Below are positions 13,081-44,874 of a DNA stretch of 64,000 nt, piece by piece (within the stretch, counting starts at the first letter, position 1; every line of letters begins with the position of its first letter). The DNA is from Escherichia coli (GTDB taxonomy: Bacteria > Pseudomonadota > Gammaproteobacteria > Enterobacterales > Enterobacteriaceae). The notes under the pieces are model-generated. The model worked only from the letters and a program-made list of their open reading frames with translations, did no database searches and was not told the origin of the DNA. The stretch lies in the NCBI RefSeq assembly GCF_030013595.1, contig NZ_CP122768.1; one strand, 5' to 3'. A program made the translations under genes and the position numbers.

Positions 13081-13112
13081 ACAAAATCCCAGATGCGCCC
13101 CTAAAAAGCGCA

Positions 13113-13160
13113 CGGACCGTCCCCTCGCCCCTCTGGGGAGAGGGTTAGGGTGAGGGGAAC
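13113..13160. repeat. GC-rich interspersed palindromic repeat (boxC-like), copy 1
   Basis: cggaccgtcccctcgcccctctggggagagggttagggtgaggggaac; a near-identical copy occurs at 27843-27891. Confidence 0.55.
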
Positions 13161-13182
13161 ATACAGCATCCGGCGATCACCA

Positions 13183-19016: not shown

Positions 19017-19352
19017 ATGGATAAAGAACGCATCATTCAGGAATTTGTGCCCGGTAAACAGGTCACACTGGCGCATCTCATCGCGCATCCCGGCGAGGAA
19101 CTGGCGAAGAAAATCGGCGTTCCTGATGCGGGCGCAATCGGCATTATGACGCTAACTCCCGGCGAAACGGCGATGATCGCCGGTGATTTAGCACTAAAAG
19201 CCGCCGATGTGCATATCGGTTTTCTCGACCGTTTTAGCGGCGCGTTGGTGATTTATGGCTCGGTGGGTGCAGTAGAAGAAGCGTTATCACAAACCGTCAG
19301 CGGTTTAGGGCGTTTATTAAATTATACGCTTTGTGAAATGACCAAAAGTTAA
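19017..19352 (+). CDS. eutS: Bacterial microcompartment shell protein EutS
   Basis: 111 aa from [15 protein letters not shown]...; first gene of the eut operon. Confidence 0.85.
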
Positions 19353-19364
19353 TACGAGGCATTC

Positions 19365-19844
19365 ATGAAACGAATTGCGTTTGTGGGTACCGTCGGGGCA
19401 GGAAAAACAACGTTATTTAATGCGTTGCAGGGAGATTATACCCTCGCCAGAAAAACGCAGGCCGTAGAATTTAATGATAAGGGTGATATTGATACGCCGG
19501 GTGAATATTTTAGCCATCCCCGCTGGTATCACGCCTTAATTACCACGCTACAGGATGTGGACATGCTGATCTATGTCCACGGCGCGAATGACCCGGAAAG
19601 TCGGTTGCCTGCCGGGTTGCTGGATATTGGCGTCAGCAAACGGCAAATCGCCGTCATCAGTAAAACGGACATGCCAGATGCTGACGTCGCCGCAACGCGA
19701 AAGTTATTGCTTGAGACGGGCTTCGAAGAGCCGATTTTCGAGCTAAACAGCTACGACCCGCAAAGCGTGCAGCAACTGGTGGATTATCTGGCATCTCTCA
19801 CCAAACAGGAGGAAGCAGGTGAAAAAACTCATCACAGCGAATGA
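19365..19844 (+). CDS. eutP: Ethanolamine utilisation GTPase/kinase-like protein EutP
   Basis: 159 aa, P-loop GTVGAGKTTLF. Confidence 0.85.
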   Translation: MKRIAFVGTVGAGKTTLFNALQGDYTLARKTQAVEFNDKGDIDTPGEYFSHPRWYHALITTLQDVDMLIYVHGANDPESRLPAGLLDIGVSKRQIAVISKTDMPDADVAATRKLLLETGFEEPIFELNSYDPQSVQQLVDYLASLTKQEEAGEKTHHSE

Positions 19845-20520
19845 TATTCGTGAAGCACACGCGCGCGGCGAACAGGCAATGTCCGTGGTTCTGCGCGCCA
19901 GCATTATTACCCCGGAAGCCCGTGAAGTGGCAGATCTACTGGGTTTTACCATCACTGAATGTGATGAATCGACCCCGGTAACGGCGTCCGTTCCCGCCTG
20001 CGTGCCAGCCGATAAAACCGAAAGCCAGCGTATCCGCGAAACCATCATCGCCCAGCTACCGGAAGGCCAGTTTACCGAAAGCCTGGTCGCGCAGCTGATG
20101 GAAAAAGTGATGAAGGAAAAACAGTCACTGGAGCAGGGTGCAATGCAGCCGAGTTTCAAATCGGTTACCGGCAAAGGCGGCATCAAAGTGATTGATGGCA
20201 GCAGCGTCAAGTTTGGTCGTTTTGACGGCGCACAGCCACACTGCGTCGGATTAACGGATCTGGTCACCGGAGACGACGGCAGCAGCATGGCCGCTGGTTT
20301 TATGCAGTGGGAGAACGCCTTCTTCCCGTGGACCCTGAACTATGACGAAATCGACATGGTACTGGAAGGGGAACTGCACGTTCGCCACGAAGGCGAAACC
20401 ATGATCGCCAAAGCAGGCGACGTGATGTTTATCCCGAAAGGCTCCAGCATCGAATTTGGTACGACATCCAGCGTGAAATTCCTGTATGTCGCCTGGCCGG
20501 CTAACTGGCAATCCCTATGA
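19819..20520 (+). CDS. eutQ: Cupin-domain protein EutQ
   Basis: 233 aa; overlaps eutP by 26 bp. Confidence 0.85.
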   Translation: MKKLITANDIREAHARGEQAMSVVLRASIITPEAREVADLLGFTITECDESTPVTASVPACVPADKTESQRIRETIIAQLPEGQFTESLVAQLMEKVMKEKQSLEQGAMQPSFKSVTGKGGIKVIDGSSVKFGRFDGAQPHCVGLTDLVTGDDGSSMAAGFMQWENAFFPWTLNYDEIDMVLEGELHVRHEGETMIAKAGDVMFIPKGSSIEFGTTSSVKFLYVAWPANWQSL

Positions 20521-21320
20521 AAGATTTCATCACCGAAGCATGGCTAAGAGCGAACCATACGCTCAGCGAAGGCGCAGAGATCCATCTCCCTGCGGACAGT
20601 CGCCTGACGCCCTCTGCCCGGGAGCTACTGGAAAGCCGCCATCTGCGCATCAAGTTTATTGACGAGCAGGGCCGCCTGTTTGTTGACGATGAACAGCAGC
20701 AGCCGCAGCCCGTTCACGGGCTGACCAGTAGCGATGAACATCCGCAGGCGTGCTGCGAACTGTGCCGCCAGCCGGTGGCAAAAAAGCCGGACACTCTGAC
20801 TCACCTGTCGGCGGAAAAAATGGTCGCCAAAAGCGATCCGCGCCTCGGTTTTCGCGCGGTTCTCGACAGCACCATTGCGCTGGCAGTGTGGCTGCAAATT
20901 GAACTGGCAGAACCGTGGCAGCCGTGGCTGGCGGACATCCGCTCGCGTCTTGGCAATATTATGCGTGCCGATGCGCTGGGGGAACCGCTGGCCTGCCAGG
21001 CGATTGTCGGGCTTTCTGACGAAGATCTGCATCGGCTTTCTCACCAGCCGCTGCGCTATCTTGGTCACGATCATCTGGTGCCGGAAGCCAGCCACGGGCG
21101 CGATGCGGCGTTACTCAATCTGCTACGCACCAAAGTGCGGGAAACCGAAACCGTAGCGGCGCAGGTATTTATCACCCGCAGCTTTGAAGTATTACGCCCG
21201 GACATCTTGCAGGCGCTGAACCGCCTTTCCAGCACGGTCTACGTGATGATGATCCTGAGCGTAGCGAAACAACCGCTAACGGTGAAGCAGATCCAACAAC
21301 GACTGGGGGAAACGCAATGA
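20517..21320 (+). CDS. eutT: Cob(I)alamin adenosyltransferase EutT
   Basis: 267 aa; ATGA start/stop overlap with eutQ; operon position. Confidence 0.85.
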
Positions 21321-22333
21321 TTATTGAACGTTGTCGTGAACTGGCGTTGCGAGCGCCCGCCAGAGTGGTTTTTCCGGATGCGTTAGATCAACGTGTGCTG
21401 AAAGCCGCGCAATATTTACATCAACAAGGTCTGGCAACGCCCATTCTGGTCGCCAGCCCGTTTGAACTTCGTCAGTTTGCGCTCAGTCATGGCGTGGCGA
21501 TGGACGGGGTTCAGGTTATTGATCCACAGAGCAATCTTGCTATGCGGGAAGCGTTTGCGCAGCGTTGGTTGGCCCGTGCGGGCGAAAAAACGCCGCCGGA
21601 TGCGCTGGAAAAACTCACCGATCCGCTGATGTTCGCTGCCGCAATGGTCAGCGCCGGGATAGCGGATGTCTGTATCGCGGGCAATCTCTCTTCCACGGCG
21701 AATGTGCTGCGTGCCGGATTACGCATTATTGGCTTACAGCCAGGCTGTAAAACGCTCTCCTCCATTTTCCTGATGCTGCCACAGTACAGTGGCCCCGCAT
21801 TGGGCTTTGCCGATTGCAGCGTAGTGCCACAGCCGACGGCGGCGCAACTGGCGGATATCGCGCTTGCCAGCGCCGAAACCTGGCGCGCCATCACCGGAGA
21901 AGAACCGCGCGTGGCGATGTTGTCGTTTTCCAGTAACGGCAGCGCCCGTCACCCCTGCGTTGCCAACGTCCAGCAGGCGACAGAAATCGTCCGTGAGCGC
22001 GCGCCGCAGTTGGTAGTCGATGGCGAGTTGCAGTTTGACGCCGCCTTCGTGCCGGAAGTGGCGGCGCAAAAAGCGCCTGCCAGCCCGCTACAAGGCAAGG
22101 CCAATGTGATGGTTTTTCCGTCGCTGGAAGCCGGAAATATTGGCTACAAAATCGCACAACGACTCGGCGGATATCGTGCCGTCGGGCCATTGATACAAGG
22201 GCTTGCCGCGCCGATGCACGATCTCTCTCGTGGTTGTAGCGTGCAGGAAATTATCGAGCTGGCGCTGGTGGCAGCTGTGCCGCGTCAGACAGAAGTGAAC
22301 CGCGAAAGCAGTTTACAAACACTGGTTGAATGA
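21317..22333 (+). CDS. eutD: Phosphotransacetylase EutD (EutI)
   Basis: 338 aa, PTA-family motifs. Confidence 0.88.
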
Positions 22334-22371
22334 ACGGTCCCGTTCTGGACCCTGATAAAGAGGAAAGCACA

Positions 22372-22665
22372 ATGGAAGCATTAGGAATGATCGAAACCCG
22401 GGGCCTGGTTGCACTGATTGAGGCTTCTGACGCGATGGTGAAAGCTGCGCGCGTCAAGCTGGTTGGTGTTAAGCAGATTGGCGGCGGCCTGTGTACTGCC
22501 ATGGTTCGTGGTGATGTTGCAGCCTGTAAAGCCGCGACCGACGCAGGTGCTGCAGCGGCACAGCGTATCGGCGAGCTGGTATCTGTACACGTTATCCCGC
22601 GTCCGCACGGCGACCTGGAAGAAGTCTTCCCGATCGGCCTGAAAGGCGATAGCAGCAACCTGTAA
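22372..22665 (+). CDS. eutM: Major BMC-H shell protein EutM
   Basis: 97 aa from [28 protein letters not shown]...; ORF track extends 14 codons upstream to 22330. Confidence 0.9.
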
Positions 22666-22771
22666 TCACCCTGTGTGACGTCGATTCGGGCGTCACGCTC
22701 TCTCCTTTTTCAGTTTACCTTCCGCGGAGGGTAGGGGGAGCTTTTACCTGAAATACGCCACGGAGGCGGGT

Positions 22772-23059
22772 ATGAAACTGGCAGTCGTCACTGGACAAAT
22801 TGTTTGTACCGTACGCCATCACGGACTGGCGCATGACAAATTGCTGATGGTGGAAATGATTGATCCACAAGGTAATCCTGACGGGCAATGCGCCGTCGCC
22901 ATCGACAATATTGGCGCGGGAACCGGGGAGTGGGTGTTACTGGTGAGTGGCAGTTCCGCCCGCCAGGCGCATAAAAGCGAAACGTCACCGGTCGATCTGT
23001 GCGTGATTGGCATCGTCGATGAGGTGGTGTCTGGCGGTCAGGTAATTTTCCACAAATAA
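22772..23059 (+). CDS. eutN: BMC vertex (pentamer) protein EutN
   Basis: 95 aa, MKLAVVTGQIVCTVRHHGL.... Confidence 0.88.
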   Translation: MKLAVVTGQIVCTVRHHGLAHDKLLMVEMIDPQGNPDGQCAVAIDNIGAGTGEWVLLVSGSSARQAHKSETSPVDLCVIGIVDEVVSGGQVIFHK

Positions 23060-23070
23060 GGCAGAACATC

Positions 23071-24474
23071 ATGAATCAACAGGATATTGAACAGGTGGTG
23101 AAAGCGGTACTGCTGAAAATGCAAAGCAGTGACACGCCGCCCGCCGCCCTTCATGAGATGGGTGTTTTCGCGTCCCTGGATGACGCCGTTGCGGCAGCCA
23201 AAGTCGCCCAGCAAGGGTTAAAAAGCGTGGCAATGCGCCAGTTAGCCATTGCTGCCATTCGTGAGGCAGGCGAAAAACACGCCAGAGATTTAGCGGAACT
23301 TGCCGTCAGTGAAACCGGCATGGGGCGCGTCGAAGATAAATTTGCCAAAAACGTCGCTCAGGCGCGCGGCACACCAGGCGTTGAGTGCCTCTCTCCGCAA
23401 GTGCTGACGGGCGACAACGGCCTGACTTTAATTGAAAACGCGCCCTGGGGCGTGGTGGCTTCGGTGACGCCTTCCACTAACCCGGCGGCAACCGTAATTA
23501 ACAACGCCATCAGCCTGATTGCCGCGGGCAACAGCGTCATTTTTGCCCCGCATCCGGCGGCGAAAAAAGTCTCCCAGCGGGCGATTACGCTGCTCAACCA
23601 GGCGATTGTTGCCGCAGGCGGGCCGGAAAACTTACTGGTTACTGTGGTCAATCCGGATATCGAAACCGCGCAACGTTTGTTCAAGTTTCCGGGTATCGGC
23701 CTTTTGGTGGTGACCGGCGGCGAAGCGGTAGTGGAAGCGGCGCGTAAACACACCAATAAACGTCTGATTGCCGCGGGCGCTGGCAACCCACCGGTAGTGG
23801 TGGATGAAACCGCCGACCTCGCCCGTGCCGCTCAGTCCATCGTCAAAGGCGCTTCTTTCGATAACAACATCATTTGTGCCGACGAAAAGGTACTGATTGT
23901 TGTTGATAGCGTAGCCGATGAACTGATGCGTCTGATGGAAGGCCAGCACGCGGTGAAACTGACCGCAGAGCAGGCGCAGCAGCTGGAACCGGTGTTGCTG
24001 AAAAATATCGACGAGCGCGGAAAAGGCACCGTCAGCCGTGACTGGGTTGGTCGCGATGCGGCGAAAATCGCGGCGGCAATCGGCCTTAAAGTTCCGGAAC
24101 AAACGCGACTGCTGTTTGTAGAAACCACCGCAGAACATCCGTTTGCCGTGACCGAACTGATGATGCCGGTGCTGCCCGTCGTGCGTGTCGCCAACGTGGC
24201 GGATGCCATTGCGCTGGCGGTGAAACTGGAAGGCGGTTGCCACCACACGGCGGCAATGCACTCGCGCAACATCGAGAACATGAACCAGATGGCGAACGCC
24301 ATTGATACCAGCATCTTCGTTAAGAACGGACCGTGCATTGCCGGGCTGGGGCTGGGCGGGGAAGGCTGGACCACCATGACCATCACCACGCCAACCGGTG
24401 AAGGGGTAACCAGCGCGCGTACGTTTGTCCGTCTGCGTCGCTGTGTATTAGTCGATGCGTTTCGCATTGTTTAA
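23071..24474 (+). CDS. eutE: CoA-acylating acetaldehyde dehydrogenase EutE
   Basis: 467 aa aldehyde-dehydrogenase family. Confidence 0.9.
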   Translation: MNQQDIEQVVKAVLLKMQSSDTPPAALHEMGVFASLDDAVAAAKVAQQGLKSVAMRQLAIAAIREAGEKHARDLAELAVSETGMGRVEDKFAKNVAQARGTPGVECLSPQVLTGDNGLTLIENAPWGVVASVTPSTNPAATVINNAISLIAAGNSVIFAPHPAAKKVSQRAITLLNQAIVAAGGPENLLVTVVNPDIETAQRLFKFPGIGLLVVTGGEAVVEAARKHTNKRLIAAGAGNPPVVVDETADLARAAQSIVKGASFDNNIICADEKVLIVVDSVADELMRLMEGQHAVKLTAEQAQQLEPVLLKNIDERGKGTVSRDWVGRDAAKIAAAIGLKVPEQTRLLFVETTAEHPFAVTELMMPVLPVVRVANVADAIALAVKLEGGCHHTAAMHSRNIENMNQMANAIDTSIFVKNGPCIAGLGLGGEGWTTMTITTPTGEGVTSARTFVRLRRCVLVDAFRIV

Positions 24475-24484
24475 GGAGTAACAG

Positions 24485-24910
24485 ATGGCGCACGACGAAC
24501 AATGGCTCACCCCGCGTCTGCAAACGGCGGCAACGCTGTGTAACCAGACGCCTGCCGCAACGGAATCTCCGCTGTGGCTGGGGGGGGATCTGGGCACCTG
24601 CGATGTGGTGTCGATGGTTGTCGACCGCGACGGTCAGCCGGTGGCGGTATGCCTCGACTGGGCCGATGTGGTCCGCGACGGCATCGTCTGGGATTTCTTC
24701 GGTGCGGTCACCATTGTTCGTCGCCATCTCGACACCCTCGAGCAGCAATTCGGTCGCCGTTTTAGCCATGCGGCGACCTCATTTCCTCCAGGTACGGACC
24801 CGCGTATTTCCATCAACGTGCTGGAATCTGCCGGGCTGGAAGTGAGCCATGTGCTGGATGAGCCAACCGCAGTCGCGGATCTGCTGCAACTGGACAACGC
24901 AGGCGTAGTG
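24485..24910 (+). pseudogene. eutJ: eutJ 5' fragment (codons 1-142), interrupted by IS10
   Basis: The reading frame runs straight into the IS10 outside end at 24911; 24485..24910 plus 26249..26659 gives 278 codons with a continuous ...NAGVV|DIGGGTTGIAIV... junction. Confidence 0.85.
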
Positions 24911-24956
24911 CTGATGAATCCCCTAATGATTTTGGTAAAAATCATTAAGTTAAGGT

Positions 24957-25025
24957 GGATACACATCTTGTCATATGATCAAATGGTTTCGCGAAAAATC
25001 AATAATCAGACAACAAGATGTGCGA
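24957..25025 (-). ncRNA. Predicted IS10 antisense RNA-OUT (pOUT transcript), placed by position within IS10
   Basis: Coordinates inferred from the known IS10 layout (transposase start at IS nt 108, matching the ATG at 25018); not independently verified. Confidence 0.4.
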
Positions 25026-26226
25026 ACTCGATATTTTACACGACTCTCTTTACCAATTCTGCCCCGAATTACACTTAAAACGACTCAACAGCTTAACGTT
25101 GGCTTGCCACGCATTACTTGACTGTAAAACTCTCACTCTTACCGAACTTGGCCGTAACCTGCCAACCAAAGCGAGAACAAAACATAACATCAAACGAATC
25201 GACCGATTGTTAGGTAATCGTCACCTCCACAAAGAGCGACTCGCTGTATACCGTTGGCATGCTAGCTTTATCTGTTCGGGCAATACGATGCCCATTGTAC
25301 TTGTTGACTGGTCTGATATTCGTGAGCAAAAACGACTTATGGTATTGCGAGCTTCAGTCGCACTACACGGTCGTTCTGTTACTCTTTATGAGAAAGCGTT
25401 CCCGCTTTCAGAGCAATGTTCAAAGAAAGCTCATGACCAATTTCTAGCCGACCTTGCGAGCATTCTACCGAGTAACACCACACCGCTCATTGTCAGTGAT
25501 GCTGGCTTTAAAGTGCCATGGTATAAATCCGTTGAGAAGCTGGGTTGGTACTGGTTAAGTCGAGTAAGAGGAAAAGTACAATATGCAGACCTAGGAGCGG
25601 AAAACTGGAAACCTATCAGCAACTTACATGATATGTCATCTAGTCACTCAAAGACTTTAGGCTATAAGAGGCTGACTAAAAGCAATCCAATCTCATGCCA
25701 AATTCTATTGTATAAATCTCGCTCTAAAGGCCGAAAAAATCAGCGCTCGACACGGACTCATTGTCACCACCCGTCACCTAAAATCTACTCAGCGTCGGCA
25801 AAGGAGCCATGGGTTCTAGCAACTAACTTACCTGTTGAAATTCGAACACCCAAACAACTTGTTAATATCTATTCGAAGCGAATGCAGATTGAAGAAACCT
25901 TCCGAGACTTGAAAAGTCCTGCCTACGGACTAGGCCTACGCCATAGCCGAACGAGCAGCTCAGAGCGTTTTGATATCATGCTGCTAATCGCCCTGATGCT
26001 TCAACTAACATGTTGGCTTGCGGGCGTTCATGCTCAGAAACAAGGTTGGGACAAGCACTTCCAGGCTAACACAGTCAGAAATCGAAACGTACTCTCAACA
26101 GTTCGCTTAGGCATGGAAGTTTTGCGGCATTCTGGCTACACAATAACAAGGGAAGACTTACTCGTGGCTGCAACCCTACTAGCTCAAAATTTATTCACAC
26201 ATGGTTACGCTTTGGGGAAATTATGA
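25018..26226 (+). CDS. IS10 transposase
   Basis: 402 aa, MCELDILHDSLYQFCPELHLKRLNSL...HGYALGKL; identical at protein level to the copy at 31470..32678. Confidence 0.93.
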   Translation: MCELDILHDSLYQFCPELHLKRLNSLTLACHALLDCKTLTLTELGRNLPTKARTKHNIKRIDRLLGNRHLHKERLAVYRWHASFICSGNTMPIVLVDWSDIREQKRLMVLRASVALHGRSVTLYEKAFPLSEQCSKKAHDQFLADLASILPSNTTPLIVSDAGFKVPWYKSVEKLGWYWLSRVRGKVQYADLGAENWKPISNLHDMSSSHSKTLGYKRLTKSNPISCQILLYKSRSKGRKNQRSTRTHCHHPSPKIYSASAKEPWVLATNLPVEIRTPKQLVNIYSKRMQIEETFRDLKSPAYGLGLRHSRTSSSERFDIMLLIALMLQLTCWLAGVHAQKQGWDKHFQANTVRNRNVLSTVRLGMEVLRHSGYTITREDLLVAATLLAQNLFTHGYALGKL

Positions 26227-26239
26227 GGGGATCTCTCAG

Positions 26240-26659
26240 GGCGTAGTGGATATCGGCGGCGGCACTACCGGCATTGCCATCGTGAAAAAGGGCAAGGTGA
26301 CGTACTCGGCGGATGAAGCCACTGGCGGACATCACATCTCTCTGACTCTCGCCGGAAATCGCCGTATTTCGCTGGAAGAGGCGGAGCAGTACAAGCGCGG
26401 TCACGGTGAAGAGATTTGGCCTGCGGTGAAACCGGTGTACGAAAAAATGGCGGACATTGTCGCCCGGCATATTGAAGGGCAGGGCATTACTGATTTATGG
26501 CTGGCGGGCGGCTCCTGTATGCAACCGGGCGTGGCGGAACTGTTTTGCAAACAATTCCCGGCGTTACAGGTGCATCTACCGCAGCACAGTTTGTTTATGA
26601 CCCCGCTGGCGATCGCCAGTAGCGGGCGAGAGAAAGCGGAGGGGATCTATGCAAAATGA
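26240..26659 (+). pseudogene. eutJ: eutJ 3' fragment (starts with the duplicated 9 bp)
   Basis: In frame with the 5' fragment after removing the IS and one TSD copy; Hsp70/actin-like ATPase motif DIGGGTT. Confidence 0.85.
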
Positions 26660-27836
26660 ATTGCAGACCGCGCTCTTTCAGGCGTTCGATACCCTGAATC
26701 TGCAACGGGTAAAAACATTTAGCGTTCCACCAGTGACGCTTTGCGGTCCGGGCGCGATGAGCAGTTGCGGGCAGCAAGCGCAAACGCGTGGGCTGAAACA
26801 TCTGTTCGTGATGGCAGACAGCTTTTTGCATCAGGCGGGGATGACCGCCGGGCTGACGCGTAGCCTGGCCGTTAAAGGTATCGCCATGACGCTCTGGCCA
26901 TGTCCGGTGGGCGAACCGTGCATCACCGACGTGTGTGCAGCCGTGGCGCAGTTGCGTGAATCGGGTTGCGATGGGGTGATCGCGTTTGGCGGCGGCTCGG
27001 TGCTGGATGCAGCAAAAGCCGTGGCGTTGCTGGTGACGAACCCGGATAGCACGCTGGCAGAGATGTCAGAAACCAGCGTTCTGCAACCGCGCCTGCCGTT
27101 GATTGCCATTCCAACTACCGCCGGAACCGGTTCTGAAACCACCAACGTAACGGTGATTATCGACGCGGTGAGCGGGCGCAAGCAGGTGTTAGCCCACGCC
27201 TCGCTGATGCCGGATGTGGCGATTCTCGACGCTACGCTGACCGAAGGCGTGCCGTCGCATGTCACGGCGATGACCGGTATCGACGCGTTAACCCATGCTA
27301 TTGAAGCGTACAGCGCGCTGAACGCTACACCGTTTACCGACAGCCTGGCGATTGGCGCAATCGCGATGATTGGTAAATCACTGCCGAAAGCGGTGGGCTA
27401 CGGTCATGACCTTGCCGCGCGCGAGAGCATGTTGCTGGCTTCATGCATGGCGGGAATGGCGTTTTCCAGTGCGGGGCTTGGGTTATGCCACGCGATGGCG
27501 CATCAGCCAGGGGCGGCGCTGCATATTCCGCACGGTCTGGCGAACGCTATGTTGCTGCCAACGGTGATGGAATTTAACCGGATGGTTTGTCGTGATCGGT
27601 TTAGCTTGGTTGGTCGGGCGCTGCGAACTAAAAAATCCGACGATCGTGACGCTATTAACGCGGTAAGTGAGCTGATTGCGGAAGTCGGGATTGGTAAACG
27701 ACTGGGCGATATTGGTGCGACATCTGCGCATTACGGCGCATGGGCGCAGGCCGCGCTGGAAGATATTTGTCTGCGCAGCAACCCGCGTACCGCCAGCCTG
27801 GAGCAGATTGTCGGCCTGTACGCAGCGGCGCAATAA
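26649..27836 (+). CDS. eutG: Iron-containing alcohol dehydrogenase EutG
   Basis: 395 aa, Fe-ADH family. Confidence 0.88.
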   Translation: MQNELQTALFQAFDTLNLQRVKTFSVPPVTLCGPGAMSSCGQQAQTRGLKHLFVMADSFLHQAGMTAGLTRSLAVKGIAMTLWPCPVGEPCITDVCAAVAQLRESGCDGVIAFGGGSVLDAAKAVALLVTNPDSTLAEMSETSVLQPRLPLIAIPTTAGTGSETTNVTVIIDAVSGRKQVLAHASLMPDVAILDATLTEGVPSHVTAMTGIDALTHAIEAYSALNATPFTDSLAIGAIAMIGKSLPKAVGYGHDLAARESMLLASCMAGMAFSSAGLGLCHAMAHQPGAALHIPHGLANAMLLPTVMEFNRMVCRDRFSLVGRALRTKKSDDRDAINAVSELIAEVGIGKRLGDIGATSAHYGAWAQAALEDICLRSNPRTASLEQIVGLYAAAQ

Positions 27837-27842
27837 AAGTGT

Positions 27843-27940
27843 ACGGACAGTCCCCTCGCCCCTTTGGGGAGAGGGTTAGGGTGAGGGGAACAGAGTCGCG
27901 CCGGTGCAAACAATTACCCTCACCCCGGCCCCTCGGCTTC
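27843..27940. repeat. GC-rich interspersed palindromic repeat (boxC-like), copy 2, with an extra inverted arm
   Basis: acggacagtcccctcgcccctttggggagagggttagggtgaggggaac, then ttaccctcaccccggcccctcggc, which is partly complementary to it. Confidence 0.55.
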
Positions 27941-28005
27941 CAGAGTGAGGGAAAAACCCACTTTCAGCATTGGCAATAAATAACAACTAACAGGGAGTAA
28001 AGGCG

Positions 28006-29232
28006 ATGGGAATTAACGAAATCATCATGTACATCATGATGTTCTTTATGCTGATAGCTGCCGTAGACAGGATCCTGTCGCAGTTCGGCGGTTCTGCTCG
28101 TTTCCTCGGTAAGTTCGGTAAAAGTATCGAAGGATCCGGCGGGCAGTTTGAAGAAGGCTTTATGGCGATGGGCGCACTGGGCCTGGCGATGGTTGGTATG
28201 ACCGCGCTGGCACCTGTTCTGGCCCACGTACTCGGACCGGTGATTATCCCGGTTTACGAAATGCTCGGTGCAAACCCGTCAATGTTCGCCGGAACACTGC
28301 TGGCGTGCGATATGGGCGGGTTCTTCCTCGCCAAAGAGCTGGCGGGCGGCGACGTAGCAGCGTGGCTATACTCTGGGTTAATTCTCGGGTCGATGATGGG
28401 GCCAACGATTGTGTTTTCCATTCCGGTGGCGCTCGGCATTATCGAACCTTCTGACCGTCGTTATCTGGCGCTCGGCGTGCTGGCGGGCATTGTGACCATT
28501 CCGATTGGCTGTATTGCTGGTGGTCTGGTTGCTATGTACTCCGGTGTGCAGATCAACGGTCAGCCGGTGGAATTCACCTTTGCGCTGATCCTGATGAACA
28601 TGATCCCGGTACTTATCGTTGCGGTGCTGGTGGCGCTGGGGCTGAAATTCATCCCGGAAAAAATGATCAACGGCTTCCAGATCTTCGCCAAATTCCTCGT
28701 TGCATTGATCACCCTCGGTCTTGCTGCCGCGGTAGTGAAATTCCTCCTTGGCTGGGAACTGATCCCGGGCCTTGATCCTATCTTTATGGCCCCTGGCGAC
28801 AAACCCGGTGAAGTGATGCGCGCCATTGAAGTTATCGGTTCTATCTCCTGCGTTCTGTTAGGGGCGTATCCGATGGTGCTGCTGCTGACCCGCTGGTTTG
28901 AAAAACCGCTGATGAGCGTCGGTAAAGTGCTGAATATGAACAACATCGCGGCAGCCGGCATGGTGGCAACGCTTGCCAACAACATCCCGATGTTCGGCAT
29001 GATGAAGCAGATGGATACCCGCGGCAAAGTCATCAACTGCGCCTTCGCCGTTTCCGCTGCTTTCGCCCTGGGCGACCACTTAGGCTTCGCCGCTGCCAAC
29101 ATGAACGCCATGATTTTCCCGATGATTGTCGGCAAATTGATCGGCGGCGTAACGGCGATTGGCGTGGCGATGATGCTGGTGCCAAAAGAAGACGCGACCG
29201 CGGCTAAAACCGAAGCGGAGGCACAATCGTGA
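28006..29232 (+). CDS. eutH: Ethanolamine permease EutH
   Basis: 408 aa polytopic membrane protein. Confidence 0.88.
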   Translation: MGINEIIMYIMMFFMLIAAVDRILSQFGGSARFLGKFGKSIEGSGGQFEEGFMAMGALGLAMVGMTALAPVLAHVLGPVIIPVYEMLGANPSMFAGTLLACDMGGFFLAKELAGGDVAAWLYSGLILGSMMGPTIVFSIPVALGIIEPSDRRYLALGVLAGIVTIPIGCIAGGLVAMYSGVQINGQPVEFTFALILMNMIPVLIVAVLVALGLKFIPEKMINGFQIFAKFLVALITLGLAAAVVKFLLGWELIPGLDPIFMAPGDKPGEVMRAIEVIGSISCVLLGAYPMVLLLTRWFEKPLMSVGKVLNMNNIAAAGMVATLANNIPMFGMMKQMDTRGKVINCAFAVSAAFALGDHLGFAAANMNAMIFPMIVGKLIGGVTAIGVAMMLVPKEDATAAKTEAEAQS

Positions 29233-30632
29233 ACACTCGCCAGCTACTGAGCGTCGGTATCGATATCGGCACCACCACCACCCAGGTGATTTTCTCCCAC
29301 CTGGAGCTGGTTAACCGTGCGGCGGTGTCGCAGGTGCCGCGCTACGAATTCATCAAACGCGAAATTAGCTGGCAAAGCCCGGTGTTCTTTACCCCTGTCG
29401 ATAAACAGGGTGGTTTAAAAGAAGCGGAACTGAAAACCTTAATCCTCGAGCAATATCAGGCTGCGGGCATTGCGCCGGAAAGCGTTGATTCTGGTGCCAT
29501 CATTATCACCGGTGAAAGCGCAAAAACCCGCAACGCTCGCCCGGCGGTGATGGCGCTCTCCCGGTCGCTGGGCGATTTTGTCGTCGCCAGCGCCGGGCCG
29601 CATCTTGAATCCGTGATCGCCGGACACGGTGCCGGGGCGCAAACCCTTTCTGAACAACGGCTGTGTCGGGTCCTGAATATCGATATCGGCGGTGGCACCG
29701 CGAACTACGCCCTGTTCGATGCCGGAAAAATCAGCGGCACTGCCTGCCTCAACGTCAGCGGTCGCCTGCTGGAAACCGACAGCCAGGGGCGCGTGGTTTA
29801 CGCTCATAAACCGGGGCAGATGATTGTGGATGAGTGCTTCGGTGCCGGTACTGACGCCCGTTCGCTGACTGGCGGGCAGCTGGTGCAGGTTACCCGCCGG
29901 ATGGCAGAGCTGATTGTCGAAGTGATTGACGGAACGCTCTCGCCGCTCGCGCAGGCATTGATGCAAACCGATTTGCTGCCCGCAGGTGTTACGCCCGAAA
30001 TCATTACGCTTTCTGGCGGGGTAGGCGAATGTTATCGCCACCAGCCCACCGACCCGTTCTGTTTTGCCGATATCGGCCCGCTTCTGGCAACGGCGCTGCA
30101 TGACCATCCGCGTCTGCGTGAGATGAACGTGCAGTTTCCGGCGCAAACCGTGCGCGCCACGGTGATTGGCGCGGGTGCTCATACCCTTTCGCTCTCTGGC
30201 AGCACAATCTGGCTGGAGGGCGTACAACTGCCGCTGCGCAATTTGCCAGTGGCGATCCCGATTGATGAAACGGATCTGGTCAGTGCCTGGCAACAGGCGC
30301 TGATTCAACTGGATCTTTGCCCCAAAACTGACGCGTACGTGCTGGCGCTTCCCGCCTCGCTGCCTGTGCGTTACGCCGCGGTACTGACGGTCATCAACGC
30401 GCTGGTCGATTTCGTCGCGCGTTTTCCGAATCCGCATCCCCTGCTGGTGGTGGCCGGGCAGGACTTTGGTAAAGCTCTGGGCATGTTGTTGCGCCCACAG
30501 CTACAACAACTCCCGTTGGCAGTCATTGACGAAGTGATTGTCCGCGCGGGGGACTATATCGACATTGGTACGCCTCTTTTTGGCGGATCGGTTGTGCCGG
30601 TGACGGTGAAATCACTCGCATTTCCTTCCTGA
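29229..30632 (+). CDS. eutA: Ethanolamine ammonia-lyase reactivase EutA
   Basis: 467 aa; ATGA-type 4-bp overlap with eutH. Confidence 0.88.
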   Translation: MNTRQLLSVGIDIGTTTTQVIFSHLELVNRAAVSQVPRYEFIKREISWQSPVFFTPVDKQGGLKEAELKTLILEQYQAAGIAPESVDSGAIIITGESAKTRNARPAVMALSRSLGDFVVASAGPHLESVIAGHGAGAQTLSEQRLCRVLNIDIGGGTANYALFDAGKISGTACLNVSGRLLETDSQGRVVYAHKPGQMIVDECFGAGTDARSLTGGQLVQVTRRMAELIVEVIDGTLSPLAQALMQTDLLPAGVTPEIITLSGGVGECYRHQPTDPFCFADIGPLLATALHDHPRLREMNVQFPAQTVRATVIGAGAHTLSLSGSTIWLEGVQLPLRNLPVAIPIDETDLVSAWQQALIQLDLCPKTDAYVLALPASLPVRYAAVLTVINALVDFVARFPNPHPLLVVAGQDFGKALGMLLRPQLQQLPLAVIDEVIVRAGDYIDIGTPLFGGSVVPVTVKSLAFPS

Positions 30633-30643
30633 GGGAACGACTT

Positions 30644-31456
30644 ATGAAACTAAAGACCACATTGTTCGGCAATGTATATCAGTTTAAGGATGTAAAAGAG
30701 GTGCTGGCTAAAGCCAACGAACTGCGTTCGGGGGATGTGCTGGCGGGCGTTGCTGCGGCAAGTTCACAGGAGCGCGTGGCGGCAAAGCAGGTGTTGTCGG
30801 AAATGACCGTAGCGGACATCCGCAATAATCCGGTGATTGCCTATGAAGATGACTGCGTGACGCGGCTGATTCAGGACGACGTTAACGAAACGGCCTATAA
30901 CCAGATTAAAAACTGGAGCATCAGCGAACTGCGTGAGTATGTGCTGAGCGATGAAATCAGCGTGGACGACATTGCCTTTACCCGCAAAGGGCTGACCTCG
31001 GAAGTGGTGGCGGCGGTAGCGAAGATTTGCTCCAACGCGGACCTGATCTACAGCGCGAAGAAAATGCCGGTGATCAAAAAGGCCAATACCACCATCGGTA
31101 TTCCGGGCACCTTTAGCGCCCGTTTGCAGCCGAACGATACCCGTGACGACGTGCAAAGTATCGCCGCGCAAATCTACGAAGGGCTTTCCTTCGGGGTGGG
31201 CGATGCGGTGATTGGCGTTAACCCGGTGACTGACGACGTGGAAAACTTAAGCCGCGTGTTGGATACCATTTATGGCGTGATCGACAAATTCAACATCCCA
31301 ACTCAGGGCTGCGTACTGGCGCACGTCACCACCCAGATCGAAGCGATCCGTCGTGGCGCACCAGGCGGGCTGATTTTCCAGAGTATCTGTGGCAGCGAAA
31401 AAGGGCTGAAAGAGTTTGGCGTAGAGCTGGCGATGCTCGATGAAGCACGCGCAGTG
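30644..31456 (+). pseudogene. eutB: eutB 5' fragment (ethanolamine ammonia-lyase large subunit), interrupted by IS10
   Basis: MKLKTTLFGNVYQFKDVKEVLAKANELRSGDV...; frame enters the IS10 inside end at 31457. 30644..31456 plus 32795..33343 gives 454 codons (453 aa). Confidence 0.88.
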
Positions 31457-31469
31457 CTGAGAGATCCCC

Positions 31470-32678
31470 TCATAATTTCCCCAAAGCGTAACCATGTGTG
31501 AATAAATTTTGAGCTAGTAGGGTTGCAGCCACGAGTAAGTCTTCCCTTGTTATTGTGTAGCCAGAATGCCGCAAAACTTCCATGCCTAAGCGAACTGTTG
31601 AGAGTACGTTTCGATTTCTGACTGTGTTAGCCTGGAAGTGCTTGTCCCAACCTTGTTTCTGAGCATGAACGCCCGCAAGCCAACATGTTAGTTGAAGCAT
31701 CAGGGCGATTAGCAGCATGATATCAAAACGCTCTGAGCTGCTCGTTCGGCTATGGCGTAGGCCTAGTCCGTAGGCAGGACTTTTCAAGTCTCGGAAGGTT
31801 TCTTCAATCTGCATTCGCTTCGAATAGATATTAACAAGTTGTTTGGGTGTTCGAATTTCAACAGGTAAGTTAGTTGCTAGAACCCATGGCTCCTTTGCCG
31901 ACGCTGAGTAGATTTTAGGTGACGGGTGGTGACAATGAGTCCGTGTCGAGCGCTGATTTTTTCGGCCTTTAGAGCGAGATTTATACAATAGAATTTGGCA
32001 TGAGATTGGATTGCTTTTAGTCAGCCTCTTATAGCCTAAAGTCTTTGAGTGACTAGATGACATATCATGTAAGTTGCTGATAGGTTTCCAGTTTTCCGCT
32101 CCTAGGTCTGCATATTGTACTTTTCCTCTTACTCGACTTAACCAGTACCAACCCAGCTTCTCAACGGATTTATACCATGGCACTTTAAAGCCAGCATCAC
32201 TGACAATGAGCGGTGTGGTGTTACTCGGTAGAATGCTCGCAAGGTCGGCTAGAAATTGGTCATGAGCTTTCTTTGAACATTGCTCTGAAAGCGGGAACGC
32301 TTTCTCATAAAGAGTAACAGAACGACCGTGTAGTGCGACTGAAGCTCGCAATACCATAAGTCGTTTTTGCTCACGAATATCAGACCAGTCAACAAGTACA
32401 ATGGGCATCGTATTGCCCGAACAGATAAAGCTAGCATGCCAACGGTATACAGCGAGTCGCTCTTTGTGGAGGTGACGATTACCTAACAATCGGTCGATTC
32501 GTTTGATGTTATGTTTTGTTCTCGCTTTGGTTGGCAGGTTACGGCCAAGTTCGGTAAGAGTGAGAGTTTTACAGTCAAGTAATGCGTGGCAAGCCAACGT
32601 TAAGCTGTTGAGTCGTTTTAAGTGTAATTCGGGGCAGAATTGGTAAAGAGAGTCGTGTAAAATATCGAGTTCGCACAT
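31470..32678 (-). CDS. IS10 transposase
   Basis: 402 aa, identical to the copy at 25018..26226. Confidence 0.93.
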   Translation of the reverse strand: MCELDILHDSLYQFCPELHLKRLNSLTLACHALLDCKTLTLTELGRNLPTKARTKHNIKRIDRLLGNRHLHKERLAVYRWHASFICSGNTMPIVLVDWSDIREQKRLMVLRASVALHGRSVTLYEKAFPLSEQCSKKAHDQFLADLASILPSNTTPLIVSDAGFKVPWYKSVEKLGWYWLSRVRGKVQYADLGAENWKPISNLHDMSSSHSKTLGYKRLTKSNPISCQILLYKSRSKGRKNQRSTRTHCHHPSPKIYSASAKEPWVLATNLPVEIRTPKQLVNIYSKRMQIEETFRDLKSPAYGLGLRHSRTSSSERFDIMLLIALMLQLTCWLAGVHAQKQGWDKHFQANTVRNRNVLSTVRLGMEVLRHSGYTITREDLLVAATLLAQNLFTHGYALGKL

Positions 32679-32739
32679 CTTGTTGTCTGATTATTGATTT
32701 TTCGCGAAACCATTTGATCATATGACAAGATGTGTATCC
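32671..32739 (+). ncRNA. Predicted IS10 antisense RNA-OUT of copy 2, placed by position
   Basis: Mirror of the copy-1 placement; pOUT points toward the outside end at 32785 and onward into eutB'-eutC. Confidence 0.4.
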
Positions 32740-32785
32740 ACCTTAACTTAATGATTTTTACCAAAATCATTAGGGGATTCATCAG

Positions 32786-33343
32786 CGCGCAGTGGGCGCG
32801 GAGTTCAACCGTATCGCCGGGGAAAACTGTCTCTACTTCGAAACCGGGCAAGGCTCGGCGCTGTCCGCTGGCGCGAACTTCGGCGCAGACCAGGTGACGA
32901 TGGAAGCGCGTAACTATGGGCTGGCGCGTCATTACGATCCGTTTATCGTCAACACCGTGGTCGGTTTTATTGGGCCGGAGTATCTCTACAACGACCGCCA
33001 GATTATCCGTGCGGGCTTAGAAGATCACTTTATGGGCAAGCTGAGCGGCATCTCGATGGGCTGTGACTGCTGCTACACCAACCACGCTGACGCTGATCAG
33101 AACCTCAACGAAAACCTGATGATCCTGCTCGCCATCGCAGGCTGTAACTACATCATGGGGATGCCGCTGGGCGATGACATCATGCTCAACTATCAGACCA
33201 CCGCATTCCACGACACTGCCACTGTGCGTCAGTTACTCAACCTGCGCCCGTCACCGGAGTTTGAACGCTGGCTGGAAAGCATGGGCATTATGGCAAACGG
33301 TCGCCTGACCAAACGGGCGGGCGATCCGTCACTGTTCTTCTGA
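32786..33343 (+). pseudogene. eutB: eutB 3' fragment (starts with the duplicated 9 bp)
   Basis: ...RAVGAEFNRIAGENCLYFETGQG... continues the EutB frame and ends at the TGA at 33341-33343. Confidence 0.88.
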
Positions 33344-33363
33344 TGACGCGGAGATAACACATC

Positions 33364-34251
33364 ATGGATCAAAAACAGATTGAAGAAATTGTACGCAGCG
33401 TGATGGCGTCAATGGGACAAGCGGCCCCCGCGCCGTCAGAAGCAAAGTGCGCCACCACCACCTGTGCGGCACCGGTGACCTCTGAAAGCTGTGCGCTGGA
33501 TTTAGGTTCTGCGGAAGCAAAAGCGTGGATTGGTGTTGAAAACCCGCATCGCGCAGACGTATTAACAGAACTGCGTCGCAGCACCGTGGCCCGCGTTTGT
33601 ACCGGTCGTGCCGGTCCGCGTCCGCGCACCCAGGCGTTGCTGCGTTTCCTGGCCGATCACTCTCGTTCGAAAGATACCGTTCTGAAAGAAGTACCGGAAG
33701 AGTGGGTGAAAGCGCAGGGCTTGCTGGAAGTCCGCTCCGAAATCAGCGACAAAAATCTCTACCTGACTCGTCCGGATATGGGCCGCCGCCTGTGTGCAGA
33801 AGCTGTTGAAGCGCTGAAAGCACAGTGTGTTGCTAATCCGGACGTGCAGGTCGTTATTTCTGATGGCCTGTCAACTGATGCGATCACCGTGAACTACGAA
33901 GAGATCCTGCCGCCGCTGATGGCGGGCCTGAAGCAAGCCGGGCTGAAAGTCGGTACGCCATTCTTTGTACGTTATGGTCGCGTGAAGATTGAAGATCAGA
34001 TCGGTGAGATCCTAGGCGCGAAAGTAGTGATCCTGCTGGTGGGCGAACGTCCGGGGTTGGGGCAGTCAGAAAGCCTCTCCTGCTACGCCGTTTACTCGCC
34101 GCGTATGGCGACCACCGTTGAGGCCGATCGCACCTGTATCTCTAACATTCACCAGGGCGGCACGCCGCCGGTTGAAGCCGCAGCCGTCATTGTGGATTTG
34201 GCGAAACGTATGCTGGAGCAGAAAGCATCCGGCATCAACATGACCCGATAA
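33364..34251 (+). CDS. eutC: Ethanolamine ammonia-lyase small subunit EutC
   Basis: 295 aa, operon position immediately after eutB. Confidence 0.88.
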
Positions 34252-34260
34252 GGAGGCATC

Positions 34261-34920
34261 ATGCCAGCTTTAGATTTGATTCGACCGTCGGTAACCGCCA
34301 TGCGGGTGATTGCCTCCGTTAACGCCGAATTTGCACGTGAACTGAAATTGCCGCCGCATATTCGTAGCCTCGGGCTGATTTCTGCTGATTCAGATGACGT
34401 CACCTACATTGCGGCTGACGAAGCGACCAAGCAGGCGATGGTCGAAGTGGTATATGGTCGCTCGCTGTATGCGGGCGCTGCACACGGCCCGTCACCGACT
34501 GCCGGTGAGGTGCTGATTATGCTTGGTGGACCAAACCCGGCGGAAGTGCGTGCTGGTCTGGATGCGATGGTTGCGAATATTGAAAATGGCGCTGCTTTCC
34601 AGTGGGCAAATGACGCAGAAAACACAGCCTTCCTGGCACATGTAGTTTCGCGTACCGGTTCTTATCTCTCATCAACCGCCGGGATCACGCTTGGCGATCC
34701 GATGGCGTATCTGGTGGCACCGCCGCTGGAAGCGACCTACGGCATTGATGCAGCGTTGAAATCTGCCGACGTGCAGTTGGTGACCTATGTCCCGCCACCG
34801 TCTGAAACCAACTACTCGGCAGCATTTTTAACCGGTAGCCAGGCCGCGTGTAAAGCAGCCTGTAACGCCTTTACCGATGCAGTGCTGGAAATCGCGCGTA
34901 ATCCAATCCAGCGTGCGTAA
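34261..34920 (+). CDS. eutL: BMC-T (tandem-domain) shell protein EutL
   Basis: 219 aa. Confidence 0.88.
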
Positions 34921-34926
34921 CGGAGG

Positions 34927-35433
34927 TTGCCGATGATCAATGCACTGGGATTGCTGGAAGTGGACGGCATGGTCGCCGCGATAGATGCAGCTGATGCCAT
35001 GCTCAAAGCAGCTAACGTTCGTCTGCTCAGTCACGAAGTGCTTGACCCTGGTCGCCTAACGCTGGTGGTGGAAGGCGATCTGGCGGCGTGTCGTGCGGCG
35101 CTGGACGCAGGTTGTGCTGCCGCGATGCGTACCGGGCGTGTCATCAGCCGTAAGGAGATCGGTCGGCCAGACGATGACACCCAGTGGCTGGTTACTGGCT
35201 TTAACCGCCAGCCGAAGCAACCCGTAAAGGAACCCGACGCGCCAGTTATCGTCGCGGAATCTGCTGACGAGTTGTTGGCGCTGTTAACATCAGTACGTCA
35301 GGGAATGACGGCAGGAGAAGTGGCTGCCCACTTTGGCTGGCCGCTGGAAAAAGCCAGAAATGCGCTCGAACAGCTCTTTTCTGCCGGGACGTTACGTAAA
35401 CGCAGTAGTCGTTACCGTCTCAAGCCCCATTAA
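34927..35433 (+). CDS. eutK: BMC shell protein EutK (BMC domain plus C-terminal nucleic-acid-binding-like tail)
   Basis: 168 aa, MINALGLLEVDGMVAAIDAADAMLKAANV.... Confidence 0.85.
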   Translation: MPMINALGLLEVDGMVAAIDAADAMLKAANVRLLSHEVLDPGRLTLVVEGDLAACRAALDAGCAAAMRTGRVISRKEIGRPDDDTQWLVTGFNRQPKQPVKEPDAPVIVAESADELLALLTSVRQGMTAGEVAAHFGWPLEKARNALEQLFSAGTLRKRSSRYRLKPH

Positions 35434-35478
35434 CCTGTCGGAGGTGCCGGGTGTCCTACAACACCCGGCATTAACATC

Positions 35479-36531
35479 ATGAAAAAGACCCGTACAGCCA
35501 ATTTGCACCATCTTTATCATGAACCCTTACCCGAAAACCTGAAGCTCACGCCGAAGGTCGAAGTGGATAATGTTCATCAACGACAGACAACGGACGTCTA
35601 TGAACATGCTTTGACAATTACCGCCTGGCAGCAGATTTACGATCAGCTGCATCCGGGCAAGTTTCATGGTGAATTTACGGAAATTCTACTCGATGATATT
35701 CAGGTTTTTCGTGAATACACTGGTCTGGCGCTGCGTCAGTCGTGCCTGGTCTGGCCGAACTCGTTCTGGTTTGGCATTCCGGCGACGCGCGGTGAGCTGG
35801 GATTTATCGGTTCGCAATGTCTGGGAAGCGCAGAAATTGCGACGCGCCCGGGTGGAACTGAGTTTGAATTAAGTACGCCGGACGATTACACGATCCTTGG
35901 CGTAGTGCTTTCTGAAGATGTCATCACTCGTCAGGCTAACTTTTTGCATAATCCGGATCGGGTATTACATATGCTGCGTAGCCAGTCGGCGCTGGAAGTG
36001 AAAGAGCAGCATAAAGCCGCGCTGTGGGGCTTTGTCCAACAGGCGCTGGCGACGTTTTGCGAGAACCCGGAAAATCTCCATCAGCCTGCAGTGCGAAAAG
36101 TGCTGGGGGATAATTTGCTAATGGCGATGGGGGCGATGCTGGAAGAAGCGCAGCCGATGATGACGGCGGAAAGCATCAGTCATCAGAGTTACCGTCGATT
36201 GCTTTCCCGCGCCCGTGAATATGTGCTGGAAAACATGTCCGAACCGGTGACGGTGCTGGACTTGTGTAATCAACTGCATGTCAGCCGCCGCACGCTACAA
36301 AACGCGTTTCACGCCATTTTGGGCATTGGTCCGAACGCGTGGCTGAAACGTATTCGCCTGAACGCCGTGCGCCGCGAACTCATAAGTCCGTGGTCACAAA
36401 GCACAACGGTAAAAGACGCCGCCATGCAGTGGGGATTCTGGCATCTTGGGCAATTTGCCACGGATTATCAGCAACTGTTTGCCGAGAAGCCGTCACTGAC
36501 GCTGCATCAGCGGATGCGAGAGTGGGGGTGA
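35479..36531 (+). CDS. eutR: AraC-family transcriptional activator of the eut operon
   Basis: 350 aa; C-terminal AraC helix-turn-helix ([36 protein letters not shown]). Confidence 0.88.
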
Positions 36532-43806: not shown

Positions 43807-44703
43807 TTATTCCTTGTCTAAAACCTGACGAATAAAGCCGCCGTGTTGATCAAGGCGTTTTTTAGCTTCTGCGGCATCGAGATTTTTCAGCACCATCACA
43901 ATGGCCGTTTTACAGTTGCGCTCGCAGGCAACCAATGCCGCTTCCGCTTGCTCTGCGCTACATCCGGTAGCGTTTTTGACGATATTGACCTGGCGCACAT
44001 GCAATTTTTCGTTGGTGGCGACCACATCGACCATCAGGTTGCCGAACACTTTGCCGGATTTAATCATCAGCCCGGTGGAGAGCATATTGAGCACCAGTTT
44101 CTGCGCCGTACCTGCTTTCATTCGCGAAGAACCTGTGACCACTTCGGCCCCAACAACTGGCGTAATGGCAAACTCAGCGGTGGCTGAAACGGCGCTCCCG
44201 GGATTACAGGAAATTCCCACTGTGCGGCAGCCGAGCTGGCGTGCGTATTCCAGTCCGGCAATTACATACGGCGTGCGACCACTGGCCGCAATGCCAACCA
44301 CCACATCCTGCGCGGTTAAGCCGATGTTTTTCAAATCATTAACACCACCTTCCCGGCTATCTTCAGCGCCTTCCACCGCGTGCTGAATGGCATATTCGCC
44401 TCCAGCAATCAAACCAACCACCAGACCCGGTTTAACGCCGTAGGTGGGCGGACATTCGCTGGCATCCAGAATCCCCAGACGACCGGATGTTCCCGCACCG
44501 AGATAAATCAGACGCCCGCCGCCGCTTACCTGGGCGTGGATAACATCGATCGCCGCGGCGATATCCGGCAGTACGCGCTCAACGGCGAGTGGTACAGTTT
44601 TATCTTCATCGTTGATAATCCGGCACATTTCCAGCGTCGATACGCGGTCAATTTCAGCCGAGGCGGCGTTCGAGCCTTCAGTAATCATCTTTTCAAGTTG
44701 CAT
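43807..44703 (-). CDS. murQ: N-acetylmuramic acid 6-phosphate etherase (SIS domain)
   Basis: 298 aa. Confidence 0.88.
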
Positions 44704-44874
44704 CGGTGGTGACCTTACTATTTACGATCAAATAATTGCAGATGTATGGAATCATATATCTCAATTTGCTAGTTTTAAAGGAATCATTGAGTCTGAAATC
44801 ACAGAGTGTGAAGAGCGTCAAAGGGCAAAATCCGTGTGCTATGCTGCGCGCAGGATGTGGTGAGGGAGTGGAAG

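Follow-up and report, generated by a model that had tools for sequence, protein, structure and literature searches.

IS10-Right within eutJ, with a second copy within eutB, in the eut operon of an Escherichia coli chromosome

Introduction

Tn10 carries an IS10-Right (IS10R) and an IS10-Left, and it is the Right type that has been reported as active (PMC11148124, PMC5006887). In IS10 a DAM site overlaps the -10 region of pIN, and RNA-OUT together with Hfq represses translation of the transposase (PMC5006887). Transcription arriving from outside meets a shield as well: according to Davis et al. (1985), as cited in PMC13181058, the transposase translation signals are sequestered in RNA secondary structure. 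The target consensus of IS10 has been given in a strict form, NGCTNAGCN, and in a relaxed form, NPuCNNNGPyN (PMC4574204). Transcription can also leave the element, since promoters directed outwards have been reported for each end, namely pOUT for the outside end and, reading across the inside end, pIII/OUTIIp in positions 1000-1230 (PMC4574204, PMC11481808). Tn10 insertions can be incompletely polar, to judge from the title of Morgan (1980) as cited in PMC11481808.

In the eut operon, EutR, ethanolamine and AdoCbl activate the promoter P1 upstream of eutS, and eutR, the last eut gene, is served both by a weak internal promoter (P2) and by autoinduction through read-through from P1 (PMC8565329). 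The DNA described here is a stretch of 64,000 nucleotides from an E. coli chromosome (the window), in which eutJ is interrupted by an IS10 element. It is very probable that this is a genuine, recent cut-and-paste insertion of IS10R into the chromosomal gene, one of two independent IS10R hits in the eut operon, the other being in eutB.

Results

Interruption of eutJ

A repeat search found the 9-mer GGCGTAGTG at 24902-24910 and again at 26240-26248, with a start-to-start spacing of 1338 bp. The two copies are no chance repeat: they form a perfect target-site duplication that brackets a complete IS10 element of 1329 bp (24911-26239; copy A). The gene starts at 24485, so codon 142 occupies 24908-24910 and the left copy of the 9-mer corresponds to eutJ codons 140-142; in the empty site of the nearest relative (see below) it is single. 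The 5′ part of eutJ, codons 1-142, thus lies at 24485-24910 on the plus strand (placed by translation and by the gene map of that relative), and its frame ends ...LDNAGVV before passing into IS sequence. The 3′ part, codons 140-278 at 26240-26659 on the plus strand, begins with the right copy of the 9-mer and translates as GVVDIGGGTT... to the normal stop at 26657-26659. The original prediction, that IS10 splits eutJ with a 9-bp duplication, that the break follows codon 142 and that the frame picks up at DIGGGTT past the element, is thereby confirmed in all three respects.

When the element is removed together with one of the two 9-mers, an eutJ reading frame of 837 bp (278 aa) is restored, and the reconstructed protein reaches 397 bits with NF011660, the EutJ equivalog of NCBIfam (cut-off 182), and 369 bits with TIGR02529. 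The surroundings agree: the gene sits between eutE and eutG, the neighbouring ORFs match aldehyde dehydrogenase (eutE-type) and EutG models, and the gene order is that of the annotated nearest relative.

As the DNA stands, translation from the eutJ start runs through residues 1-142 of EutJ and then through 55 residues encoded by the IS, a chimeric ORF at 24485-25078 on the plus strand that stops at 25076-25078. Near the other end of the element an in-frame ATG at 26201, still within the IS, opens a 152-aa ORF that continues into the 3′ part of eutJ. Intact EutJ phosphate-binding motifs (GVDLGT and DIGGGTT) are not found together in one frame: the split falls between them, and the first motif reads GGDLGT here, the result of a derived, lineage-specific V34G change at 24585. 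The translation shows that EutJ is cut short past residue 142, at a point that separates phosphate-1 from phosphate-2 (DIGGGTT) in its actin/Hsp70-like ATPase fold, and eutJ is a pseudogene in this strain.

Identity and anatomy of the element

Copy A lies on the plus strand, starts with CTGATGAATCCCC and ends with GGGGATCTCTCAG; its ends are imperfect terminal inverted repeats in which 17 of 23 bases match (CTGATGAATCCCC... against CTGAGAGATCCCC...). Aligned end to end with the IS10-Right of Tn10 on plasmid R100 (NC_002134.1, positions 43950-45278, where the RefSeq annotation uses the family name ISVsa5), it is identical at 1328 of 1329 positions, and the single mismatch, an A instead of a C at IS position 203, is synonymous. 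Against IS10-Left the count falls to 1313 of 1329. Because 16 bases and four amino acids (V266I, L381S, A389T, A398V) separate it from the Left element, copy A is assigned to the Right type.

The orientation follows from the same alignment: base 1 of copy A coincides with the outer boundary of Tn10 in R100, and therefore the outside end is 24911, upstream in the operon, and the inside end is 26239. On the minus strand, 24956-25025 matches Rfam RF00240 over its full length (1-70) with 98.8 bits (gathering score 41); this is the antisense RNA-OUT gene, which overlaps the transposase gene at the 5′ end of the latter. It is transcribed from pOUT towards the outside end, so that pOUT of copy A points backwards, antisense to eutJ and eutE. 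The transposase gene itself (25018-26226, plus strand) is a single intact DDE ORF of 402 aa that starts near the outside end, at IS position 108; its product is identical to the R100 IS10R transposase and matches the NCBIfam IS4 family transposase model NF033591 with 404 bits. The two orientation claims made earlier, that the outside end is upstream and that transposase and eut operon share the same sense, both hold.

Within copy A, GATC (dam) sites occur only at IS positions 67 and 1320, as expected of IS10, which has one such site in the -10 region of pIN and one in the inside end. The target GGCGTAGTG fits the relaxed consensus completely and the strict one at four of its six specified bases. 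On sequence, then, the element agrees with IS10 (IS4 family) in every defining feature that can be tested. Nor is it rare: copies 100% identical to copy A are present on many plasmids, and IS10 matches of at least 99% identity occur in more than 1000 records. Copy A is apparently active in transposition, given an intact ORF, intact ends and two identical copies at two new sites.

A second IS10R in eutB

About 5.2 kb downstream of copy A lies another IS10-Right (copy B, 31457-32785, minus strand), which the original prediction did not mention. It is 100% identical to copy A, with its inside end at 31457, its outside end at 32785 and its RNA-OUT at 32671-32740 on the plus strand (Rfam). It has a duplication of its own, CGCGCAGTG, at 31448-31456 and 32786-32794, and it splits eutB, the gene for the large subunit of ethanolamine ammonia-lyase, past codon 271: the 5′ part (codons 1-271, 30644-31456, plus strand) ends in the first CGCGCAGTG, and the second begins the stretch at 32786-33343 (plus strand) that holds the 3′ part, as sequence comparison with the relative shows. 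Like the site in eutJ, CGCGCAGTG fits NPuCNNNGPyN and four of six bases of the strict consensus, and the two target sites resemble each other further (GCA-NGCGNAGTG-G).

The copies are inverted with respect to one another, outside ends outermost, and the 5,217 bp between them comprise eutJ′, eutG, eutH, eutA and eutB′. Three of these genes, eutG (26649-27836), eutH (28006-29232) and eutA (29229-30632), are intact plus-strand ORFs, together spanning 26649-30632, supported by the relative's map and by profile matches; the eutG start overlaps the eutJ stop. The 64-kb window contains no further IS10 beyond these two. It carries IS1397, and no CPZ-55 prophage separates eutA from eutB.

Empty sites and distribution

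The flanks in the window are E. coli sequence; their identity is 98.5% with most complete genomes and reaches 99.9% with two pig isolates. In the nearest complete E. coli genome, NZ_CM149870.1 (99.9% identical), eutJ and eutB are uninterrupted, and the joined flanks are present verbatim at both sites with one 9-mer each. Once both elements and one duplication copy each have been excised, 18,001 bp align to NZ_CM149870.1 with 11 mismatches and no indels. The segment between the insertions is collinear with the relative and in the same orientation (2 mismatches in 5,217 bp).

The junctions are a different matter from the element. When a hit was defined as one place covering both sides of a junction, neither the left nor the right junction of copy A, nor the left junction of copy B, occurred in any of 5,426 complete E. 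coli genomes; a search of the plasmid collection for the right-hand junction of copy A had no match, and an exact 36-mer over its left junction was not found in the genome or metagenome contig collections. Since the copies are identical, the duplications intact and the junctions absent from these collections, the evidence points to two recent insertions, probably private to this strain.

The same relative has lost eutE independently through a nonsense mutation, which hints that the eut operon may be dispensable in this clade. Of 9 substitutions derived in the window, 6 lie in eut, 5 of them non-synonymous, counts too small to be read as an enrichment through decay of the operon.

RNA-level features of copy A

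Transcripts that read into copy A from upstream are predicted, by both minimum free energy and centroid structures, to form a fold-back stem (24962-25022, plus strand) in which 24962-24971 pairs with 25013-25022 and which covers the transposase AUG at 25018-25020. The arms were also detected as an inverted repeat in the sequence. RNA starting at IS10 position 81, which we take to be the start of the pIN transcript, lacks the upstream arm and is predicted to be essentially unstructured. The predicted stem agrees with the account of Davis et al. (1985, as cited in PMC13181058), in which RNA structure hides the signals for transposase translation. Neither this stem nor the outward promoters reported for IS10 were mentioned in the original prediction. 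Ribosomes translating the EutJ′ fusion ORF cross both arms of the stem, and this could weaken the inhibition.

Further on, about 180 nt are rich in C and poor in G: windows covering 25031-25228, around and just past the stop of the fusion ORF, contain 29-32% C and 12-17% G, with C/G ratios of 1.8-2.6. Near the inside end, the stretch reported to contain pIII and OUTIIp, both directed outwards (positions 1000-1230 of IS10; PMC11481808, PMC4574204), corresponds to 25910-26140 on the plus strand, where the bases are identical to IS10R, and these promoters would read into eutJ′-eutG. A consensus promoter scan of 24400-26800 returned no promoters, and a terminator scan of the same interval gave two weak terminator-like hairpins, a yield not above that of shuffled sequence; because the promoter scan also missed the documented pIN and pOUT, these scans say little either way.

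Discussion

The preferred reading of a genuine, recent IS10R insertion implies the following course of events. Transposase cut the two strands of the target 9 bp apart, at a site in agreement with NPuCNNNGPyN, and repair of the stagger left GGCGTAGTG duplicated. Transcripts from the EutR-dependent promoter upstream of eutS would then run into the IS in the sense of its transposase. Ribosomes on the EutJ′ fusion ORF would halt at 25076-25078, and the start codon of the transposase would be masked by the fold-back stem, with RNA-OUT and Hfq repressing translation further; about 1.15 kb of poorly translated IS RNA, C-rich at its start, would as a result be accessible to Rho. With RNA exposed in this way, induced expression of eutG, eutH, eutA and the later genes should decrease sharply. 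A C-rich, G-poor stretch suits Rho loading, which makes polarity on eutG, eutH, eutA and later genes plausible, and the polarity put forward in the original prediction agrees with this anatomy; it may be incomplete, since outward promoters are reported at both IS10 ends. Weak constitutive transcription might leave the elements in two places: from pIII/OUTIIp of copy A across its inside end into eutJ′-eutG, and from pOUT of copy B into eutB′-eutC-L-K-R. The autoinduction loop by which read-through sustains eutR would be broken.

How much of this polarity is realized matters less to the phenotype than it might. With eutB also split, ethanolamine ammonia-lyase would be lost at any degree of polarity, and therefore no breakdown of ethanolamine is expected of the strain in any case. 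The prediction that follows from the splitting of both eutJ and eutB is that ethanolamine serves the strain neither as a source of carbon nor as one of nitrogen.

The first alternative accepts the insertion as real and denies effective polarity: pIII/OUTIIp or read-through would sustain eutG, eutH and eutA, and the only direct loss at this site would be EutJ. Outward promoter activity from both IS10 ends has been invoked for residual downstream expression (PMC4574204, PMC11481808), and IS10 positions 1000-1230 are intact here. In addition, eutG has a strong Shine-Dalgarno sequence of its own (GGAGGGG, 6 nt upstream of the ATG), and the IS holds no strong intrinsic terminator, at least in the scan that missed pIN and pOUT. 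Against this, the inside-end outward promoters of IS10 are weak, and transcription from P1 must cross about 1.15 kb of poorly translated RNA with a C-rich, G-poor start. The inside-end promoters of copy B would, moreover, produce convergent antisense transcription through eutG, eutH and eutA, and with eutB split there would be no pathway for the products of these genes to serve. Taken together, absence of effective polarity seems rather unlikely, if still deserving of some weight.

Two less ordinary consequences can be drawn from the geometry of the locus, and that either of them applies is distinctly improbable. First, two identical and apparently active IS10R might form, in place, a 7,875-bp Tn10-like composite (24911-32785), whose outside ends, which are highly active, could carry eutG-eutH-eutA elsewhere or bring about deletions and inversions at the locus. 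Second, as copy A is in the sense orientation and the EutJ′ frame passes through both arms of the stem, translation of EutJ′ induced by ethanolamine could open the stem and uncover the transposase start codon, which would tie the activity of IS10 to a nutrient signal of the gut.

An artefact is a third possibility, and a highly improbable one: the IS10 copies may have been mis-assembled, or may have hopped from a cloning host that carries IS10 (DH10B or XL1-Blue, for example) into a cloned fragment before sequencing. Such moves of IS10 out of a host strain into a cloned insert have been documented as a cause of artefacts (Kovarik et al., 2001, as cited in PMC11148124 and PMC4574204), neither junction was found in any other genome searched, and two copies lie within 6.5 kb when the 64-kb window has no other. 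Mis-assembly is ruled out by the exactness of the duplications and of the empty sites in NZ_CM149870.1: perfect 9-bp duplications at both copies and precise empty sites are not products of such an error. A clone-borne insertion would have had to dominate the consensus twice, and IS10 is common in natural E. coli, as the records with at least 99% identity attest. Transposition in a cloning host and transposition in the strain would leave the same outcome, between which sequence alone does not distinguish.

Next to no credence can be given to a single Tn10-like composite, IS10-eutJ′GHAB′-IS10, inserted as a unit or importing eut genes: the two IS10R do bracket 5,217 bp in inverted orientation with their outside ends outermost as in Tn10, but the whole unit lacks a shared 9-bp duplication (its outer flanks are GGCGTAGTG and CGCGCAGTG), each IS has a separate one, the interior follows the relative in order and orientation with only 2 mismatches, and the junction of the inside end with eutJ′ was not found in the other E. 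coli genomes or plasmids searched. The duplication pattern and the collinearity refute such an origin, and it is for these reasons (separate duplications, unlike outer flanks, a collinear interior) that two separate insertions are favoured.

On the preferred reading, two independent and recent IS10R insertions, the kind of event is already known, and the particular allele alone is new to the collections searched. Its significance is local, and it leaves existing knowledge unchallenged. It does mark IS10R as recently active in this genome, and the locus may offer a natural test case for two questions: how IS10 transposase is shielded from outside transcription, and how a pair of insertion sequences becomes a composite transposon.

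Comparison with known systems

The closest described system is the IS10-Right of Tn10 on R100, with which copy A shares its 1329-bp length, an identical transposase, RNA-OUT, the dam sites, the terminal inverted repeats and a 9-bp duplication. It differs in being solitary in a chromosome rather than an arm of Tn10, and in one synonymous base. IS10-Left of Tn10 is alike in element family and length and differs by 16 bases and 4 amino acids.

Among chromosomal insertions, solitary IS10R copies in laboratory E. coli offer a close parallel, for example tonB::IS10R and yncI::IS10R of XL1-Blue: each is an independent 1329-bp IS10R that interrupts a chromosomal gene at a defined codon (PMC11148124). 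Unlike those insertions, the present ones are in a host that is not K-12, that is without the CPZ-55 prophage and that carries IS1397.

The arrangement of the pair recalls Tn10 as well, with two inverted IS10 whose outside ends are outermost. In Tn10, however, the architecture is not that seen here, where the cargo consists of native eut DNA that has kept its place and each arm is an IS10R with a duplication of its own. Finally, the eut operon has been found to host a mobile element before: in MG1655 the CPZ-55 prophage lies between eutA and eutB (PMC11148124). That element is a prophage between genes, whereas those described here are insertion sequences within coding sequences.

A second IS10R interrupts the eut operon

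A second IS10R copy, in minus orientation and 100% identical to the one that splits eutJ, lies at 31457-32785 and breaks eutB after codon 271. It is bracketed by a 9-bp duplication, CGCGCAGTG, so that the whole span runs from 31448 to 32794.

Fate of the eutJ fragments

In the 5′ part of eutJ, a T>G change at window position 24585, derived in the window lineage, turns Val34 into Gly within GVDLGT, the conserved phosphate-1 motif of EutJ, and yields a run of eight Gs; V34G could reflect decay after inactivation, or could be a base-calling error beside the homopolymer. On the 3′ side, an ATG at 26201, within the IS10 inside end, opens a 152-aa ORF (26201-26659) in frame with the 3′ part of eutJ, from which a C-terminal EutJ fragment could in principle be expressed; no convincing Shine-Dalgarno was found upstream of this ATG.

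Substitutions in the eut operon

Derived substitutions were counted over the roughly 38 kb where polarisation was possible. The eut operon (window 19017-36531) holds six of the nine assigned to the window lineage, and five of these six are non-synonymous: eutP H130Y, eutJ V34G, eutA G177S, eutB G137S and eutB T385I. Across all nine, G:C>A:T changes predominate (8/9). The nearest relative, NZ_CM149870.1, independently acquired eutE Q177*, and its eutE is annotated as a pseudogene (4530-5933 of the relative's locus L001). Together, the changes in eut and the relative's nonsense mutation hint that selection on eut is relaxed in the clade, though the counts are too small for testing.

Repeats and other differences from the nearest relative

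Two copies of a 58-bp REP-like repeat (93% identical) occupy the eutG-eutH (27835-27892) and ypfG-tkt (13104-13161) intergenic regions. Between yfeY and yfeX, the nearest relative carries a tnpA of the IS200/IS605 family, about 700 bp long (1529-1987 of its locus L003), which the window lacks at ~40100. At 58460-58514, zipA is about 50-70 bases longer than in the relative, in a Pro/Gln-rich repeat region; this looks like coding-repeat length variation.

At the window start (1-1843), IS1397 (IS3 family; about 392-1827) sits within a REP/palindromic unit. To its left is the yphA 3′ end, where the nearest relative has tmcA-ypfH, while the ypfN-dapE side lies to its right. These loci, joined head-to-head here, lie about 80 kb apart in the K-12 gene order, which suggests an inversion with IS1397 copies at its boundaries.

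Organisation of the IS10R pair

Considered together, the two IS10R copies enclose eutJ'-eutG-eutH-eutA-eutB' with their outside ends facing outward, a geometry like that of Tn10.
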